DNA of 64,000 bases from positions 331,816 to 395,815 of the forward strand of contig NZ_CANMSJ010000003.1 in NCBI RefSeq assembly GCF_947500605.1, read 5' to 3'. Source of the DNA: an uncultured Lacinutrix sp. Lineage in GTDB: Bacteria; Bacteroidota; Bacteroidia; Flavobacteriales; Flavobacteriaceae. A program made the position numbers and the translations under genes. Every line of letters starts with the position of its first letter. Positions within the stretch are counted from its first letter, which is position 1. Positions 1 to 51,383 of the stretch are shown piece after piece. The notes below the pieces were generated by a model that saw only the letters and a program-made list of their open reading frames with translations, had not been told where the DNA came from and ran no database searches.

Positions 1-46
1 AAAACGTATTCTTAAAGAAGTCTTGGCTTATTTAAAACACAAAACT

Positions 47-17965: not shown

Positions 17966-18096
17966 AAAGTTGTTATTTGTTAAGGTGAAGGTAATTATTT
18001 AAAAGCTAAAATAAACAAAGTGCATTTTTGTAAGTGATAATAAAACTAAAAAGGTGGTCTCTAATTTCTCTTAATAAAGACTTAAGATGATTGGCC

Positions 18097-18196
18097 TGCA
18101 ATAGCGATTGATGCGGCATCCTTTTTTGAGGCACGAAAAAAAGATATAGTGGAAAGCGCGGTTGGTTTTGGTTTTTCTGCCAAAAGCAAATTGCCC
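18097..18196. repeat. Dispersed ~100-nt structured element, Flavo-1-like, copy 1
   Basis: tgcaatagcgattgatgcggcatcc-T6..A7-gatatagtggaaagcgcgg-hairpin-gccc; related copies at 26975 and 51273. Confidence 0.7.
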
Positions 18197-44887: not shown

Positions 44888-45601
44888 ATGATGGGAACAG
44901 GTTATATGGGTTACTATATTATTATTGGAATAATATCTGTAGTAAGCTGGTTGGTTAGCAACCAATTAAAAAAGAAGTTTGCTAAATACTCTAAGGTGCA
45001 TTTAAGAAATGGAATGAGCGGCGCAGAGATTGCTAGAAAAATGCTCGCAGATCATGGTATTAGAGATGTTGAGGTTATTTCTACTCCTGGACAATTAACA
45101 GACCATTACAATCCTGCAAATAAAACAGTTAATTTAAGTGAGGTTGTTTATGGCGAACGTAACGCATCGGCAGCAGCTGTTGCAGCACACGAATGTGGTC
45201 ATGCGGTACAACATGCTACGGCTTATAAGTATTTAACTATGCGCTCTAAATTAGTGCCGGTTGTTCAAGTAACATCTAATATTTCTCAATGGGTTATTTT
45301 TGGAGGTATAGCATTAATGGCAAGTGAGGCTATGGGAGCTGCTGGTAAATATGTAGCTATCGCTGGTTTAATAATGATGGGTTTTGCTACACTATTTAGT
45401 GTGGTAACTTTACCTGTAGAATACGATGCTAGTAACCGTGCATTAGCATGGTTAAAAAATAAAAACATAGTAACACCAGAAGAATATAAAGGCTCGGAAG
45501 ATGCACTTAAATGGGCTGCAAGAACTTATTTAGTGGCTGCTCTTGGAGCAATTGCTTCTTTATTGTACTTTGCTTTAAGAATATTTGGATCTAGAGATTA
45601 A
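44888..45601 (+). CDS. Membrane zinc metallopeptidase (YugP-like, Zn_peptidase_2)
   Basis: LTDHYNP..K, VAAHECGHA (HExxH), TLPVEYDAS.RA. Confidence 0.92.
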   Translation: MMGTGYMGYYIIIGIISVVSWLVSNQLKKKFAKYSKVHLRNGMSGAEIARKMLADHGIRDVEVISTPGQLTDHYNPANKTVNLSEVVYGERNASAAAVAAHECGHAVQHATAYKYLTMRSKLVPVVQVTSNISQWVIFGGIALMASEAMGAAGKYVAIAGLIMMGFATLFSVVTLPVEYDASNRALAWLKNKNIVTPEEYKGSEDALKWAARTYLVAALGAIASLLYFALRIFGSRD

Positions 45602-45627
45602 AAACAAAAAATAAGACAAACAATTAT

Positions 45628-46347
45628 ATGGAAAATTCTTTCGAAAACCCAATGCCACAACAACGTATGGCGCTTAGTGCTGTAGCGCAAGAAGAACGCG
45701 TAGCTTTTTACAAAAAAACATACGCGCATGTTGCAGTAGGTGTATTAGTATTTATCTTTTTTGAATATCTTTTTTTACAAAGTGAAGCTGTTGTAAGCTT
45801 TGCTTTATCAATGACCGAAGGTTTTAAATGGTTATTAATGTTAGGTGGTTTTATGTTTATTACTAATTATGCAGAAAACATGGCACTAAAAACGCCAGAT
45901 AAAAACAAGCAGTACTTAGCTTTTGGACTATACATTTTAGCGGAAGCTTTTATTTTTATTCCAATGATTTATATTGCTTTAACGTATCTGCCACAAGGAT
46001 CGGAAATGATACAGCAAGCGGGAATAGTTACTTTGGCCTTGTTTTCAGGATTAACAGCGGTAGTGTTTGTTACTAAAAAAGATTTTTCTTTCTTAAAAAC
46101 AGGTTTAACAATAGGTTTCTTTATTGCGCTAGGTTTAATAGTAGCAGGAACTCTTTTTGGGTTTAATATGGGATTATGGTTTTCTGTAGGTATGTGTTTA
46201 CTTGCAGGAGGTTCTATTTTATATCAAACTTCTAACCTTGTAAAAAAATATACAATAGACGATTATATTCCTGCAGCTTTAGGGTTGTTTGCTTCGTTAA
46301 TGTTATTATTCTGGTATGTATTAAGAATTTTCATGTCTAGAGATTAA
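45628..46347 (+). CDS. Bax inhibitor-1/YccA family membrane protein
   Basis: ~7 TMs, KKDFSFL, ILYQTSN, AALGLF. Confidence 0.88.
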   Translation: MENSFENPMPQQRMALSAVAQEERVAFYKKTYAHVAVGVLVFIFFEYLFLQSEAVVSFALSMTEGFKWLLMLGGFMFITNYAENMALKTPDKNKQYLAFGLYILAEAFIFIPMIYIALTYLPQGSEMIQQAGIVTLALFSGLTAVVFVTKKDFSFLKTGLTIGFFIALGLIVAGTLFGFNMGLWFSVGMCLLAGGSILYQTSNLVKKYTIDDYIPAALGLFASLMLLFWYVLRIFMSRD

Positions 46348-46369
46348 TCTATTGTAAAATTATAGAATT

Positions 46370-46399
46370 AAAAAGCTCCTCTAATTAGAGGAGTTTTTT
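46370..46399. terminator. Bidirectional intrinsic terminator
   Basis: aaaaagctcctctaa/ttagaggagtttttt. Confidence 0.85.
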
Positions 46400-46424
46400 A
46401 TTTTTATAAGTGTTCTGTTTTATA

Positions 46425-47102
46425 TTAAAACGAATTATTGTCTAAAGAAACGAGTTTGTTTTTAAGTGCATATATTACTAGTCCAGCAACATTTTTGGCT
46501 TCGGTTTTTAGAAGTAAATTATTACGATGCCCTTCTACAGTTCTTGGACTTATAAAAAGTTTTTCGGCAATATCGCTTGTGGTCATTTGATTGCAAATAA
46601 GCTCTAAAACTTCAATTTCTCTTTTTGTAAAATAGTTGGCATCGAAAGTACATTTTGTTTTTTTGTCTTTTGGGCTTACTAAGCTTTCATGGACATATTG
46701 TAGTACTTGCTCGTCGTAATAAAAACCTTTTTTTGCAACTTGTTCTATGGTTTTAATCATTAATGCTGGTGTGCTGTTTTTTGCTAAGTAAGCAACAGCT
46801 CCAATAGATATCATATTTAAAATAAAAGGTTTACTAAAGTAACTGGTTAATGCAATAACCTTAATGTTTGGAAACTCTTTTCTAATAAGTTTTGTTACTT
46901 CTACACCATTTAAACCAGGCATTTTCAAGTCGGTTACAACAATTTCTGGCTGTAGATCTGCACTACGTAATTTGTTAATTAAATCATCACCATCTTCGGC
47001 ATCAAAAAGAATGTCAATATTCTCTTGGTTACCTAAAATAGCCAGTAAACCTTGTCTAAAAAGTAACTCGTCGTCTGCTAATGCTATTTTTATTTTATTC
47101 AT
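46425..47102 (-). CDS. NarL/LuxR-family response regulator
   Basis: REC (ADDE, DLKMP, YLAK) plus HTH TKREIEVL..ISPRTVEGHRNNL. Confidence 0.95.
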   Translation of the reverse strand: MNKIKIALADDELLFRQGLLAILGNQENIDILFDAEDGDDLINKLRSADLQPEIVVTDLKMPGLNGVEVTKLIRKEFPNIKVIALTSYFSKPFILNMISIGAVAYLAKNSTPALMIKTIEQVAKKGFYYDEQVLQYVHESLVSPKDKKTKCTFDANYFTKREIEVLELICNQMTTSDIAEKLFISPRTVEGHRNNLLLKTEAKNVAGLVIYALKNKLVSLDNNSF

Positions 47103-47898
47103 TGTATTTGCAATTTATAATAAAATGACTTCCGTTATTTTGAATGCTATCAATTTTAAGTTTTCCATTTAAAATTTTAACTCGACTTTTAATATTCTGC
47201 AAGCCAATTCCAGTTTTTTTGTGTAGATCTAAAACATTAAACCCAACACCATTGTCTTGGTAATGTATTACAAAACCGCTAGCATCTTGCTCCATAAATA
47301 CAGCAAGTTCTTTTGCTTTTCCATGTTTAATAGAGTTGTTTATTAATTCTTGAATAATTCTAAATACATGTAGCTGGTTGCTTTCATTAAGTTTATGTAG
47401 CTCTTCAATATTATGTTCAATGTCTATAGCTGTATTAGTAGAAACATCATCAAAAAGCTCTTCTAAGGCGACTTTAAGTCCAAATTTATCTAAAATTGGA
47501 GGCATTAAATCGTGTGCAATTCTTCTAGAGCTTTCTAGTGTGCTAGTCGTAATTTCTAATATTTGATTTAAAGATTCGCGTTGCTTTATATTAATAACTT
47601 TATCACACAAAAGCACATTTGTACTTAGGCTAATTATATTTAGTTTAGAGCTAATAGCATCGTGTAAGTCTTGTGCTATACGGGTGCGTTCGGCTTCTTG
47701 AATAGCTATAGAGGTTTGTAATATTTTTTGTTGATTTTCTAATTTTAAAGCTGATTTTTCAAGCTCTTTTTGAACTATTTTTTGTCTTGAATAATGAAAG
47801 AACAGAATTAATCCAGTAGTTACCAAAACCAAAAAGATGATGCCATAAACTAATGCTTGAATAATTAACTTTTCGTTTTCCATAAGCTCTTTTTCCAT
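47095..47898 (-). CDS. HisKA_3 histidine kinase with a single TM and no sensor domain
   Basis: RIAQDLHD, RIIQELINNSIKHG, QDNGVGF, GIGLQNI. Confidence 0.93.
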   Translation of the reverse strand: MEKELMENEKLIIQALVYGIIFLVLVTTGLILFFHYSRQKIVQKELEKSALKLENQQKILQTSIAIQEAERTRIAQDLHDAISSKLNIISLSTNVLLCDKVINIKQRESLNQILEITTSTLESSRRIAHDLMPPILDKFGLKVALEELFDDVSTNTAIDIEHNIEELHKLNESNQLHVFRIIQELINNSIKHGKAKELAVFMEQDASGFVIHYQDNGVGFNVLDLHKKTGIGLQNIKSRVKILNGKLKIDSIQNNGSHFIINCKYNE

Positions 47899-48521
47899 TC
47901 TATTAAAATTAGTATTAAAAAACCCAAATAGAATAATCTATTTAAAAACCAAATGTTAAAGGATAGTAACCTGTCTACAGTATTAAGTAGATTTCCTAAA
48001 ATAAAAATAAGAGTACTTGTAGATAGATATATTAATACACCAGCGTTTATATACATAAATTTTCCTGGTTTGCTTAACAAGTTATATAGATGAAAAATAG
48101 AATATATAACTAAAGGAAATGATGTTATAAATATTTCTAAGAGATTAAACTTAGAAAATAAACTAGGATTTAAAGTGTATTGGACTATTAAAATAGAAAA
48201 GATTATAGCGCTTATAATTTTTACATACTTCTTTTGGTTTTTATTAAATAGTTGATTGTAAAATAAAGACAAGAAAATAAATTGAAAAATAAAATAGAAA
48301 TGTGATAAGTATAAGTTGTTTAATTCTAAATTATACAACCTCTGAATTTTTACTATTTGATCACTGCCAATTGAAATACATAAACTAAGAACTAAATAAA
48401 AAACAAAATACTTAACAGCTTTGCTTTTGTTACCTTTTAAGTAACTATAAATATATAATGTAGCATTTATAAAAAGTATTATTATGCCAAGCTGTTTTAA
48501 TGCACCATCAATTTCTTTCAT
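47865..48521 (-). CDS. Stand-alone ~7-TM membrane protein
   Basis: Seven hydrophobic segments; NNLYLSHFY; overlaps the kinase start. Confidence 0.75.
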   Translation of the reverse strand: MKEIDGALKQLGIIILFINATLYIYSYLKGNKSKAVKYFVFYLVLSLCISIGSDQIVKIQRLYNLELNNLYLSHFYFIFQFIFLSLFYNQLFNKNQKKYVKIISAIIFSILIVQYTLNPSLFSKFNLLEIFITSFPLVIYSIFHLYNLLSKPGKFMYINAGVLIYLSTSTLIFILGNLLNTVDRLLSFNIWFLNRLFYLGFLILILIEWKKSLWKTKS

Positions 48522-48529
48522 TCCATTTT

Positions 48530-48973
48530 TTAAGGATTATATAAAGGGCTATTTGGGTCACATGTACTAGGACAAGGTGATGTAAAGTCGAAAACACCAC
48601 TTCCTTCTAGAGCAGCTACTGCTTTTTCTGTTTCTCCATCTGGGCATCCAGAAGGTTTTTCGTTTTCAATAATATCTCTATATATCCCATTACAATCTTT
48701 TACTGTTCCTACAATTAATAGTTTTTCTGTTTCTGCGCTTGGCGGATCGTTTTTTGATTTCTTAATGGCCATATAAGCACGCACTCCAGAGTCTGTAACA
48801 TTCTCTATTGTGTAGTGTCCATCTTCTTGTTTTACAAGCACGTTCATTTCTTCTAAACAAGCAATTAAATCGTTTGAAGGGATTAAAAAAGCTTTAGCAT
48901 GTGTTGGGTTTTCTTCTTGCCATTCACGTGCATAAATAATTGCGTCTTCAAGGTCTATTTGTTTTGCTTTCAT
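48530..48973 (-). CDS. Hypothetical soluble protein with C-terminal DFTxPCPxxC motif
   Basis: 147 aa; AFLIP, GVRAYM, EKLLIVG, FDFTSPCPSTCD. Confidence 0.8.
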   Translation of the reverse strand: MKAKQIDLEDAIIYAREWQEENPTHAKAFLIPSNDLIACLEEMNVLVKQEDGHYTIENVTDSGVRAYMAIKKSKNDPPSAETEKLLIVGTVKDCNGIYRDIIENEKPSGCPDGETEKAVAALEGSGVFDFTSPCPSTCDPNSPLYNP

Positions 48974-49145
48974 AATATTATTTTTAGTTGGTTATTATAT
49001 AAAAGTACTAAAATATTGTTATTGAGCAATATAGGGGCTTAAAAACAGGTGTAAACCCCTATTTTTTAATATGAGTAAAAATGCTCTAAAAAACGAGAAT
49101 TGTCTAGGGTACATTTACAGAATTAATCAACTAAAAATAAAAATT

Positions 49146-49673
49146 ATGGAACAGTTTATTGGACAAATTTTAATGTTTGGAGGGAATTTTGCACCTAGGA
49201 ATTGGGCATTTTGCAACGGTCAGTTATTATCTATTTCTAGCAATACAGCACTGTTTTCTATTTTAGGAACAACTTATGGTGGAGATGGAAGAACAACTTT
49301 TGGATTGCCAGATCTTAGAGGTCGCGTCCCTGTACATGCAGGTGATGGACCAGGATTGCCTGTAGTAAAATTAGGACAAAAAGGTGGTAATGCAAGTGTT
49401 ACACTTAACGTAAGTGAAATACCAGCTCATGCGCATGGAGCTACAATTGAGGCCGTTAGTCCGCTTCCTAGAGGAGGAGTGACAGTTGCAGATCCAGCAA
49501 ATGCATATAATGCTCAAGGTGGAGTATATGCAATGGGTAAAAATGCTACAATGGCTGCAGATAGTGTGTCTGTTGGACAAACTGGAGGTAGCCAGCCACA
49601 CGATAATATGCAACCTTATCAAGTTGTGAATTATATTATTGCTTTACAAGGTATATTTCCATCAAGAAGCTAA
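49146..49673 (+). CDS. Phage tail collar domain protein (MdpB-like)
   Basis: FIGQILMFGGNFAPRNWAFCNGQLL..LFSILGTTYGGDG.TTF.LPDLRGR; ATG at 49146. Confidence 0.92.
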   Translation: MEQFIGQILMFGGNFAPRNWAFCNGQLLSISSNTALFSILGTTYGGDGRTTFGLPDLRGRVPVHAGDGPGLPVVKLGQKGGNASVTLNVSEIPAHAHGATIEAVSPLPRGGVTVADPANAYNAQGGVYAMGKNATMAADSVSVGQTGGSQPHDNMQPYQVVNYIIALQGIFPSRS

Positions 49674-49743
49674 TTAAAAATTTAATCAAAGGCAAAAGGA
49701 GTCTAATCCTTGCCTTTGGTTTTCATTATTAAAACTTATTATT

Positions 49744-50559
49744 ATGAAAAAAAACTACACTTTAAAAAAGGCAACATTAGATAGCATTTTTTTTTGTTGC
49801 TTAATCATGTTAAGTTATAGCGTAAATGCACAAGTATTAAATTTTACTATTGATACGGCAGTAGATGATGGTGTAAGTATTACAGAAACACTTACTACAG
49901 GATCTGATACCTATGTATTACTAATAGACGTTCCTAATTCAGGAGCTGAAACTGTAGTGCCTTTATCTGGTGCCGATTTAATCTTCTATTTTGGAAGTGG
50001 AGCTACTATAAATACCTTTACTCTTACACTTACTAAAAATGGTAACCCTATAAATTTTAAATTAAACGGAATGGATTATGACACAGTAGAAACAGGGAGT
50101 ATTTCTATTGTAAACCAAGATGATGAAGTCATTTCATTAGAGCAAGAATATCTAGTAGGTGCTGGTGCTATACCTATAAATAATCCAAGTAATGCTGTAG
50201 ATATTACAGCATTTAAGATTCTTCAGCCAGATGTGAGTGATAATACCGATTTTGCATTTCACAATATAGAGGTAGATGTTCTTGATACATTAAGTACGGG
50301 AGCGTCTGTGTCTTTAGGTAGTCAAGTTGCTGTTTTTCCAAACCCATCTAATGGAGATATAACAATTAAAAATTCTGGTGTAACTTTATATACAGCTGTA
50401 GTTACAGATATTAAAGGCCGAACAATCGAGACTATTAATTTAAATGGAATAAAAACCAATAAAAACTTAGATTTAAGTTCAAAATTATTTTCAGGGTTAT
50501 ATTTTGTTTCTATTATATCTGAAAAAGGTACAATTACTAAAAAGCTAATTATAAAATAA
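49744..50559 (+). CDS. T9SS type A sorting domain protein
   Basis: Signal peptide ending VNAQ; CTD VFPNPSNG..SGLYFVSI..TKKLIIK. Confidence 0.9.
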   Translation: MKKNYTLKKATLDSIFFCCLIMLSYSVNAQVLNFTIDTAVDDGVSITETLTTGSDTYVLLIDVPNSGAETVVPLSGADLIFYFGSGATINTFTLTLTKNGNPINFKLNGMDYDTVETGSISIVNQDDEVISLEQEYLVGAGAIPINNPSNAVDITAFKILQPDVSDNTDFAFHNIEVDVLDTLSTGASVSLGSQVAVFPNPSNGDITIKNSGVTLYTAVVTDIKGRTIETINLNGIKTNKNLDLSSKLFSGLYFVSIISEKGTITKKLIIK

Positions 50560-50578
50560 ATAATTTAATTTATTAAAC

Positions 50579-50609
50579 AAACTCTTAAAGCGATTTAAGA
50601 GTTTTTTTT
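50579..50609. terminator. Intrinsic terminator
   Basis: aaactcttaaa-gcga-tttaagagttt plus T tract. Confidence 0.85.
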
Positions 50610-50660
50610 GTTAGTTTTAGTTGTTCTATTTTGAAAACTTTCGAAGTAATAGAGACTTCT

Positions 50661-51131
50661 TTATATCTTAATCTGTCTATCAATTTGCTGGTTTAGAGAA
50701 ATAAAAGTTTCTGTTCTCGATACACCTTCTATAGATTGAATGTCTTTATTTAAAACATGCATAAGGTGCTCGTTATCTTTACAAAGAATTTTTATAAAAA
50801 TACTCCAGTTCCCTGTAGTGTAATGGCATTCTAAGACTTCAGGTATTTTTTTTAGTTGTTTTACAGCTTCGGGATTACTCATGGCTTTGTCTAGGTAAAC
50901 ACCAATATATGCCATGGTAGTATAGCCTAATACTTTTGGGTTTATTATAAATTTAGAACCTGCTATTAATCCAGATTTTTCTAGTTTTTTTAAACGTTGG
51001 TGTATTGCTGCTCCAGAGATGCCTACTTGTCTGGCAATTTCTAAAACAGGTGTTCTTGCATCTTCCATTAAGGCACGAAGTATCTTTTTATCGATACCAT
51101 CTATATGTATGTTTTGGTTTATAACCTTCAT
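50661..51131 (-). CDS. Lrp/AsnC family transcriptional regulator
   Basis: IDKKIL..L..DAR, RLKKLEKSGLI, CHYTTG. Confidence 0.95.
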   Translation of the reverse strand: MKVINQNIHIDGIDKKILRALMEDARTPVLEIARQVGISGAAIHQRLKKLEKSGLIAGSKFIINPKVLGYTTMAYIGVYLDKAMSNPEAVKQLKKIPEVLECHYTTGNWSIFIKILCKDNEHLMHVLNKDIQSIEGVSRTETFISLNQQIDRQIKI

Positions 51132-51272
51132 TTAAATGTTTTTAGTACCGCTACAGCGGAAAATCTATTAGTATTTATTACTTTTTAAGTGTAGTAAAAC
51201 TCTAATTTAAAACATAAAAGTACTAAAATAGTATGAAACTGAAACTTTAATTTAATATGATGCTTAGGTAAG

Positions 51273-51383
51273 TGCGTTAAGGATAGAAGTGGTATCCTTT
51301 TTTTTGCTGTCATAAATGGCAAAAAAAGATATAACGTAGAGCCTGACCAAGACAATGCCTTTAGGCAAGTCTTGGTAACGCCC
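51273..51383. repeat. Flavo-1-like element, copy 3
   Basis: tgcgttaaggatagaagtggtatcc-T8..A7-gatataacgtagagcctga-hairpin-aacgccc. Confidence 0.7.

Follow-up and report, generated by a model that had tools for sequence, protein, structure and literature searches.

In a 64,000-nucleotide stretch of DNA from an uncultured Lacinutrix sp. (contig NZ_CANMSJ010000003.1, positions 331,816 to 395,815; hereafter the window), four consecutive minus-strand open reading frames (ORFs) at 46425..48973 of the ORF listing encode a small cysteine-motif protein (S), a stand-alone seven-transmembrane (7TM) protein (T), a HisKA_3 histidine kinase (K) and a NarL/LuxR-type response regulator (R). Comparison across genomes identifies S-T-K-R as a signalling module of four proteins that is conserved in Flavobacteriaceae and probably present in other Bacteroidota too. 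We propose, with a probability of roughly 0.55, that it constitutes an accessory-protein two-component system in which T would feed the sensorless K within the membrane, S would modulate this input and R would drive genes that bear a common palindromic operator. Through this palindrome the switch appears, on sequence grounds, to control neighbouring genes for tail-fibre-like and secreted proteins. How two-component systems of Bacteroidota receive their signals is poorly understood, and the Flavobacteriaceae are major degraders of marine algal biomass; the predicted operator and regulon render the system directly testable.

Conservation of the S-T-K-R cassette

The initial annotation of the window had described a four-gene cassette with junctions of +8 (S to T), -34 (T to K) and -8 nt (K to R), and the ORF coordinates and domain calls match it exactly. 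Our synteny set comprised the best 80 loci, taken as one genome per GTDB species, relatives of T occurring in at least 209 species; all 80 loci belong to Flavobacteriaceae, in ~12 genera, the nearest being that of Lacinutrix algicola at 94% identity. S, T, K and R are contiguous and co-oriented in 75 of these species-level loci, the exceptions being four with T-K-R but without S, and one that is cut by a contig end. The arrangement is far beyond chance. Median junctions over the set are +9, -34 and -8 nt, the T-K overlap having modes at -40, -37, -34 and -4 nt as well as other values, and these tight and conserved junctions imply translational coupling. In two Flavobacterium loci the S-T pair is duplicated as a unit, giving the orders S-T-T-S-T-K-R (L044 5522-10123) and S-T-S-T-K-R (L068 4441-8023).

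The same order is found around distant members of the S family, where all five with readable flanks are followed by a ~210-aa membrane protein, a HisKA_3 kinase and a regulator with receiver and GerE domains; a sixth, on a short contig, has an ORF with the T-family signature of the third transmembrane helix just downstream. The neighbourhood survey of the 147-aa family, which the initial annotation had put forward as a check, therefore describes a co-inherited unit (75 of 80 loci and five of five distant members), and the possibility that the genes do not co-occur across genomes is decisively set aside. Homologues of S and T come from Lacinutrix, Olleya, Oceanihabitans, Aquimarina, Formosa and relatives, all of them annotated as hypothetical, and a literature search for published descriptions of the cassette, of collar genes in Flavobacterium and of 7TMR-DISM proteins in Bacteroidetes found no relevant account. 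No paralogues were found within the 64-kb window. DnaB, AccA, LptF/G, EamA, Tgt and other clusters that co-occur with the cassette were rejected as parts of the system, their presence reflecting lineage synteny.

Features of the four proteins

In Pfam, K contains HisKA_3 (PF07730, E 1.8e-9) and HATPase_c (PF02518, E 1.2e-10) domains, and R contains Response_reg (PF00072, E 1.3e-19) and GerE (PF00196, E 7e-15) domains, i.e. both halves that define the class of HisKA_3 kinases paired with NarL/LuxR regulators. The layout of K is an acidic outside stub of ~10 aa, one transmembrane (TM) helix (hydropathy window 8-38, core ~12-34), a coiled-coil linker, the HisKA_3 dimerisation and histidine phosphotransfer (DHp) domain and HATPase_c, with an N-out/C-in topology; the phospho-acceptor is H79 in the H-box RIAQDLH79D, which is conserved at 95% or more in 80 sequences. 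Searches of Pfam and NCBIfam found no HAMP, PAS or other sensor domain in K, and 79 homologues likewise have the single TM (one segment in most), the acidic stub (mean net charge -2.2) and no sensor domain, such that domain search and hydropathy both bear out the sensorless one-TM HisKA_3 kinase first described from the sequence. The juxtamembrane segment (GLILFF-YSRKKI-QKELEK) is basic and highly conserved. Intramembrane-sensing kinases are usually defined by two TM helices, a very short outside loop and the lack of any other input domain; K shares the lack of a sensor domain but has one TM helix in place of two, and may work like an intramembrane-sensing kinase with an even more reduced anchor. 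In R the receiver residues D10, D11, D58, T86 and K107 can be read from the translation, and hydropathy reveals no TM segment. Phosphotransfer from K to R is indirectly suggested by the 8-nt overlap of their genes and by the highest rate covariation of any pair in the cassette.

T is always a separate polypeptide, as had been proposed, and its gene is translationally coupled to that of the kinase. Its homologues form 182 clusters, increasing to 261 by profile search, and all 120 of the members listed from these 261 clusters are stand-alone proteins of 211-241 aa. AlphaFold2 predicts seven long helices with a mean predicted local distance difference test score (pLDDT) of 88.9, and positive-inside statistics across the family give an N-out/C-in topology, with net charges of +2.7, +2.9 and +1.3 for loops 1-2, 3-4 and 5-6, +3.8 for the C-terminal tail, and ~0 for the other loops. 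At a mean pairwise identity of ~38%, over 20 positions are still invariant in the family, many being polar in-helix residues: N69, H74, E129, S134, P136, Y146, N147, N159 and S169 are invariant in-helix residues, Q80, H144, T170 and N194 are near-invariant, and W209 is conserved too. The polar residues form one set towards the outer leaflet (N69, H74, E129 and N194) and another at the cytoplasmic face (H144, Y146, N147, N159 and W209).

T scores 16.7 bits against 7TMR-DISM_7TM (PF07695), below the gathering score of 29; seven of 36 members match this model, all sub-threshold (best E 0.0035), and the other 29 have no match. The weak matches of these few members span nearly the whole Pfam model, and a remote relationship between T and 7TMR-DISM proteins may be entertained. 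Beyond this sub-threshold resemblance, Pfam, NCBIfam, PDB sequences, PADLOC and PHROGs provided no family assignment. The Foldseek comparison envisaged in the initial annotation did retrieve generic GPCR/rhodopsin 7TM bundles from the PDB, with TM-scores of 0.5-0.58, but all at E > 0.1 (0.79 for a rhodopsin chimera), and no conserved lysine, such as carries retinal in microbial rhodopsins, was found within the seventh helix (columns of residues 190-209).

The 34-nt ORF overlap and the weak resemblance to 7TMR-DISM_7TM, a family normally fused to output domains, raise the question of whether T and K are halves of one 7TMR-DISM-type kinase, either broken by a frameshift or sequencing error, or joined by programmed frameshifting. 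This explanation is scarcely credible: the split is kept in 79 of 80 loci at the differing overlap lengths given above, and the members of the T family are, as noted, uniformly stand-alone. Furthermore, the C-terminus of T is cytoplasmic whereas K begins on the outer side and crosses the membrane by a TM helix of its own; fusion would thus put the catalytic domain outside the cell, and a frameshifted T-K fusion was accordingly rejected. With both proteins N-out/C-in, T and K are separate chains, and any contact between them is confined to the membrane interior or its cytoplasmic side.

S is predicted by AlphaFold2 (pLDDT 83.4) to consist of an alpha/beta domain and a C-terminal tail. Its invariant residues are concentrated in this tail, D129-F-T-x-P-C134-P-x-x-C138-D-x-x-S-P-L, with additional RAY (65-67) and EKLLIVGT blocks; the PCPxxC motif for which the lead gene was first singled out is real, corresponding to P133-C134-P135-S-T-C138, of which C134, P135 and C138, together with D139, are invariant in 36 aligned homologues. 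Across genera, and in distant members too, the tail motif DFTxPCPxxCDxxSPL shows little or no variation; the distant members retain the Cys pair, the spacing of which varies in second domains. A first search yielded 69 clusters of homologues, and a full HMMER profile search of 1.84 billion representatives defined a family of 526 members at 50% identity, all of them short and including compact 103-118 aa forms and tandem two-domain forms. Rare variants (P0301, P0358, P0247 and P0261) include an N-terminal Cys-rich domain with a weak thaumatin match. No family match for S was found in Pfam, NCBIfam, PDB sequences, PADLOC or PHROGs, and Foldseek comparison with the PDB and BFVD gave none at E <= 0.001, resemblances to cystatin/NTF2-like folds and to BamE being at noise level. 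The S and T families are thus unannotated, without a solved structure and without a relative recognisable by fold.

The initial annotation offered S as a ligand, a ligand precursor or a co-sensor, and considered a quorum- or contact-sensing pathway. A co-sensor role remains viable. That S is instead a secreted signal, ligand or precursor sensed outside the cell by T, in a quorum- or contact-sensing loop, is in our judgement improbable. S does head a presumably autoregulated operon, the usual layout of an autoinducer loop, its two invariant Cys residues would suit an extracellular disulfide, a few family members have signal-peptide-, lipobox- or anchor-like N-termini (P0358, P0301 and P0247), and one locus (L039) contains an orphan S copy with its own operator. 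However, hydropathy finds no signal peptide or TM segment in the S of the window, and the great majority of the family likewise have neither; the confidently predicted globular domain of ~110-150 aa does not have the shape of a leader plus core peptide; and the C-terminal motif does not change from genus to genus, where a signalling peptide would normally diverge for specificity, with no lineage-variable mature region being apparent in S. No exporter, peptidase or modifying enzyme is conserved near the cassette in the 80 neighbourhoods. S also lacks the signal peptide and the C-terminal sorting domain that are both required of cargo of the type IX secretion system (T9SS). Quorum or contact sensing is not supported, and the comparative data point to neighbouring genes for collar-domain and T9SS-sorted proteins.

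An operator-like palindrome and its candidate regulon

A palindromic operator-like element (Table 1) has its centre ~81 nt 5' of the S start codon and ~92 nt 5' of the probable start of a divergent gene for a tail-collar-domain protein. The operator family has the consensus AAAC-A[CG]GTA-N4-TAC[CG]T-GTTTT, in which G, T, A, C, C and T are nearly invariant, and its position is fixed in 49 loci, starting ~90 nt and centred ~82 nt upstream of the S start codon. In the 64-kb window this is the sole site to score 12 or more against the position weight matrix (PWM); shuffled sequences yield 0-1 sites, just above the threshold. Since the element scores on both strands it is a palindrome, as would be expected of a site bound by a GerE-type dimer. 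In the window, the canonical palindrome is diverged in its left half-site. The operator is overlapped by another inverted repeat (AATATAGGGGCTTA / TAAACCCCTATTTT, 49028-49065), whose arms are separated by 10 nt, and the AGGGG...CCCCT arms present in the window are partly degraded in the nearest relative (L001), where CTACT replaces CCCCT.

Within 951 kb of loci we located 85 operator sites, of which 83 are intergenic. Counting genes that start 30-200 nt from a site, 50 sites are near S and 34 near collar-domain genes; nine are near the gene for a 419-aa secreted protein (c10) that directly follows R in Flavobacterium, three are near T in loci that lack S and three near genes with a T9SS C-terminal domain, and the gene for a 267-aa membrane protein (c21) has an operator nearby in all 10 loci that contain it. 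The operator lies ~90-120 nt upstream of c10 and c21, neither of which has a Pfam match. In Dokdonia, collar genes 4-5 kb from the cassette still carry their own copy, which provides independent evidence for the operator. This distribution suggests that the palindrome may be the operator of R and mark its regulon. Individual examples are c10 at L059 9133-10392, encoding a 419-aa signal-peptide protein found after R in 25 Flavobacterium-type loci; c21 at L036 10670-11473, in Dokdonia-type loci; and an extra, orphan S in Winogradskyella (L039 3124-3537) with its own operator 87 nt upstream.

The control region 5' of S spans ~97-170 nt. Bacteroidota promoters have the consensus -33 TTG / -7 TAnnTTTG, and a putative promoter of this type can be recognised upstream of S (Table 1); the box equivalent to the -7 element, TAGCTTTA, is conserved in other loci. 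Transcription would start at ~48993, placing the operator centre at ~-61. The control region between S and the collar gene is mirror-symmetric, each gene being preceded by a 16-nt leader, AAYCAACTAAAAATAA, the two near-identical copies of which are the only ones in 64 kb (0.09 expected by chance); kindred TATTAATCAA leaders flank S and collar genes in other loci. This twin leader might serve both genes in translation or regulation, or might correspond to the first transcribed nucleotides.

The mechanical ORF start of the collar gene is 49071, but the true start is probably ATG 49146, because the twin leader lies just upstream of this codon, the Collar domain then begins at residue 6, and the resulting S-collar intergenic length of ~172 nt matches that of other loci (~180 nt). 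The protein matches tail and tail-fibre families in PHROGs and has no signal peptide. In 40 of the 80 loci a divergent collar gene adjoins the cassette, and the T9SS-sorted gene is present in 38; in the window the two are probably co-transcribed. Stand-alone collar-domain proteins are common in Bacteroidota, where they are annotated as 'microcystin-dependent protein' or tail-fibre-like, and the regulon prediction, if it holds, would provide a first handle on them.

Table 1. Genes and predicted control elements of the S-T-K-R cassette and the adjoining divergent genes (window coordinates).
Feature	Position	Strand	Description
Gene R	46425..47102	-	225-aa NarL/LuxR-type response regulator; overlaps gene K by 8 nt
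Gene K	47095..47898	-	267-aa HisKA_3 histidine kinase; start overlaps end of gene T by 34 nt
Gene T	47865..48521	-	218-aa stand-alone 7TM protein; ORF listing and AlphaFold2
Gene S	48530..48973	-	147-aa small Cys-motif protein; ORF listing and alignment
Bidirectional hairpin terminator	46369..46400	both	Closes the cassette; 14-bp stem on +, 7-bp stem on -, T-run after each
Leader element AACCAACTAAAAATAA	48978..48993	-	4 nt 5' of S start codon
Putative Bacteroidota-type cassette promoter	49000..49029	-	TTG 49029-49027, 19-nt spacer, TACTTTTA 49007-49000
Palindromic operator-like element	49039..49068	both	AAACAGGTGTAAACCCCTATTTTTTA on +; PWM score 25.5 (+), 14.8 (-)
Leader element AATCAACTAAAAATAA	49125..49140	+	5 nt 5' of ATG 49146
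Tail-collar-domain protein (divergent putative target)	49146..49673	+	~175 aa; Collar PF07484, E 1e-29
T9SS-sorted secreted protein	49744..50559	+	271 aa; Por_Secre_tail C-terminal domain (Pfam/NCBIfam)

The terminator is common to the cassette and a convergent Bax1-I-family gene (45628..46347, + strand). The flanks consist of housekeeping genes (leucyl-tRNA synthetase, zinc peptidase, Bax1-I, AsnC and saccharopine dehydrogenase), no further phage genes were found beside the collar neighbourhood, and PADLOC gave no matches for five of six proteins; a defence-system or prophage interpretation of this neighbourhood was rejected. The PADLOC matches were two weak ones to CARF families (E ~1e-5) over the helix-turn-helix region of R. 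The GC content falls to 0.21 at 47994-48499 in gene T, compared with ~0.29-0.35 around it, consistent with a composition rich in Phe, Ile, Leu, Asn and Tyr rather than with foreign origin. Two Flavo-1 RNA motifs score above the Rfam gathering score, one (51262-51352, +, 53.4 bits) between the AsnC-family and saccharopine-dehydrogenase genes near the cassette neighbourhood, and the other at 18089-18167 (+, 44.1 bits).

Proposed signal path, rival readings and related systems

In the accessory-protein mechanism that we favour, T would act as the membrane-embedded input subunit, its polar residues forming a binding pocket or conformational switch that responds to an ion, a small molecule or some cue from membrane or envelope, and would touch the TM helix and juxtamembrane segment of K laterally to set the balance of kinase and phosphatase activities; such a contact would resemble those of the LiaF-LiaS, BceB-BceS or sensory rhodopsin-Htr pairs. 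K, given its domains, would autophosphorylate at H79 and pass the phosphate to D58 of R, and a phosphorylated R dimer bound at AGGTA-N4-TACCT would activate the cassette and the divergent collar and T9SS-cargo genes or, in other lineages, reach the 267-aa membrane protein or the 419-aa secreted protein. S, the least certain part of the scheme, may be a cytoplasmic modulator or co-sensor of the T-K complex that docks by its invariant Cys tail, possibly a metal- or redox-sensitive element; as the first gene of a presumably autoregulated operon, S would give feedback. We also consider possible, albeit tentatively, a version in which T is a ligand-binding receptor of a new, Bacteroidota-specific family acting laterally on the single-pass kinase, with S as a cytoplasmic adaptor at its inner face, and in which the collar and T9SS surface proteins would be switched on by an external chemical or biotic cue. 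If T is the sensor, it would represent a novel class of receptor, joined to its histidine kinase in a manner likewise new, and a true receptor-adaptor-kinase arrangement would be a bacterial design without a characterised counterpart.

Mirror-tree partial correlations, which control for the other two proteins and involve pairs that are not statistically independent, are 0.84 for K-R, 0.36 for T-K, 0.28 for S-K, 0.18 for S-T, 0.00 for T-R and -0.11 for S-R, a weak but consistent fit to S and T acting on K. In one cDNA run (X16) a contig covering S and 60 nt of T has a depth of 15.6 and ends at 48983, a second contig spans the collar and T9SS genes (49221-50445, depth 16.9), and K and R have a depth of ~3, S mRNA thus appearing ~5 times as abundant as that of K and R. 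In a seawater 'metatranscriptome' run (X1), an 8.2-kb contig with a word depth of 104 covers 45600-50700 at 95-99% identity; it probably reflects DNA, because it spans divergent genes and the terminator, and suggests a bloom of a closely related strain, with DNA probably carried over in the library.

The main rival, though rather doubtful, is that K itself reads a membrane property (thickness, fluidity, temperature or pH) in the manner of DesK, with S and T as stress effectors like liaI and liaH, which precede liaGFSR. In DesK, also a HisKA_3 kinase, the TM region leads straight into a coiled coil and DHp domain without HAMP or PAS (PMC6879721); K shares this layout and bears a charged stub where it meets the membrane surface. 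A 'minimal sensor' DesK, engineered to have a single TM, is fully functional (PMC6879721). Many of the host genera are cold-marine, and the operator upstream of S, like the higher level of S mRNA than of K and R, would fit S and T being themselves regulated. The translational coupling of T to K is nevertheless kept in almost every locus, the rate of T covaries with that of the kinase and not of the regulator, no desaturase or lipid-remodelling gene is conserved nearby, and a Flavobacterium sub-clade without an upstream operator keeps S-T-K-R behind an unregulated promoter, S and T thus remaining tied to the kinase also in genomes in which it does not target them.

Several points weigh against the accessory-protein mechanism. 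It is built on observed domain content, topology, synteny, gene coupling and operator distribution; the protein contacts, the direction of regulation, the role of S and the stimulus are what we infer from them, and the link between operator and regulator is drawn from their co-localisation. S is dispensable in some lineages, since loci L027, L041, L046 and L077 keep T-K-R without it, the first three still having the operator. The Flavobacterium sub-clade mentioned above has an operator before c10 but none before S, where a plain -33/-7 promoter follows the dnaB terminator, such that autoregulation does not extend to every lineage. S and T give a modest mirror-tree signal, and the RNA evidence is weak, consisting of assembled Logan contigs from a related strain at 95-99% identity; with the excess of S mRNA in X16, S and T could be effectors rather than inputs. 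Finally, the cytoplasmic location of S is probable rather than certain, because three of ~150 inspected representatives (P0301, P0358 and P0247) have signal-peptide-like or anchor-like N-termini, the types among these rare variants being lipobox-like (…VFSAAC), a Sec-like signal peptide and a hydrophobic anchor; these could be gene-calling artefacts, or could indicate a domain able to work outside the cytoplasm.

The initial annotation knew of no characterised system with this architecture, which holds for the specific proteins but not for the logic, this being familiar from LiaFSR, GraXSR-VraFG and BceRS-AB. The cassette is closest in logic to LiaFSR/VraTSR and to GraXSR-VraFG/BceRS-AB, although it is not a member of those families because it has no LiaF-like protein, HAMP domain or ABC transporter. 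The LiaFSR/VraTSR systems of Firmicutes likewise combine a HisKA_3 kinase lacking an extracellular sensor domain with a NarL/LuxR regulator, an accessory membrane protein encoded just upstream in the operon, and autoregulation via a palindromic operator. They differ in that T has seven TM helices and no similarity to LiaF or VraT detectable in Pfam or NCBIfam, K has one TM helix and no LiaS-type HAMP linker, S provides a fourth component, the host belongs to the Bacteroidota, and the putative regulon comprises collar and T9SS-cargo genes rather than PspA-like envelope-stress genes; K scores 98 bits against the Strep_LiaS model (cutoff 450), over the catalytic core only.

The closest logical parallel is that of GraXSR-VraFG and BceRS-AB, where a cytosolic accessory protein, a membrane accessory protein, a sensorless kinase and a regulator are likewise combined; their membrane partner is an ABC transporter, of which there is none here, and S and T have no family match to GraX or BceB. 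GraSR and BceRS pair HisKA kinases with OmpR-type regulators, whereas the cassette pairs HisKA_3 with a NarL-type regulator. LiaF is described as regulating LiaRS (PMC3543457), GraX as a cytosolic cofactor co-transcribed with graRS (PMC3128592), and the conformation of BceS as governed by its membrane partner BceAB (bioRxiv 10.1101/2020.02.28.969956).

7TMR-DISM proteins similarly couple a seven-helix membrane module to a cytoplasmic signalling output; T differs from them in scoring below the PF07695 gathering threshold, in lacking DISMED1/2 domains (its N-terminus is ~10 residues) and in being unfused to any signalling module, the kinase being separate with its own TM helix. DesK-DesR also joins a HisKA_3 kinase to a NarL-type regulator, and a single TM helix suffices in the engineered MS-DesK, but natural DesK, which lacks accessory proteins, has five TM helices, whereas the kinase of the cassette is co-inherited with S and T. 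Sensory rhodopsin II is a stand-alone 7TM receptor that signals laterally to a separate transducer, HtrII, which controls a histidine kinase; this analogy is functional only, the proposed partner of T being the kinase itself and not a transducer resembling methyl-accepting chemotaxis proteins. Seen against these systems, the principle of a split sensor is not new, but the components, the breadth of their distribution, the single-pass kinase and the link to collar and T9SS-sorted proteins are.

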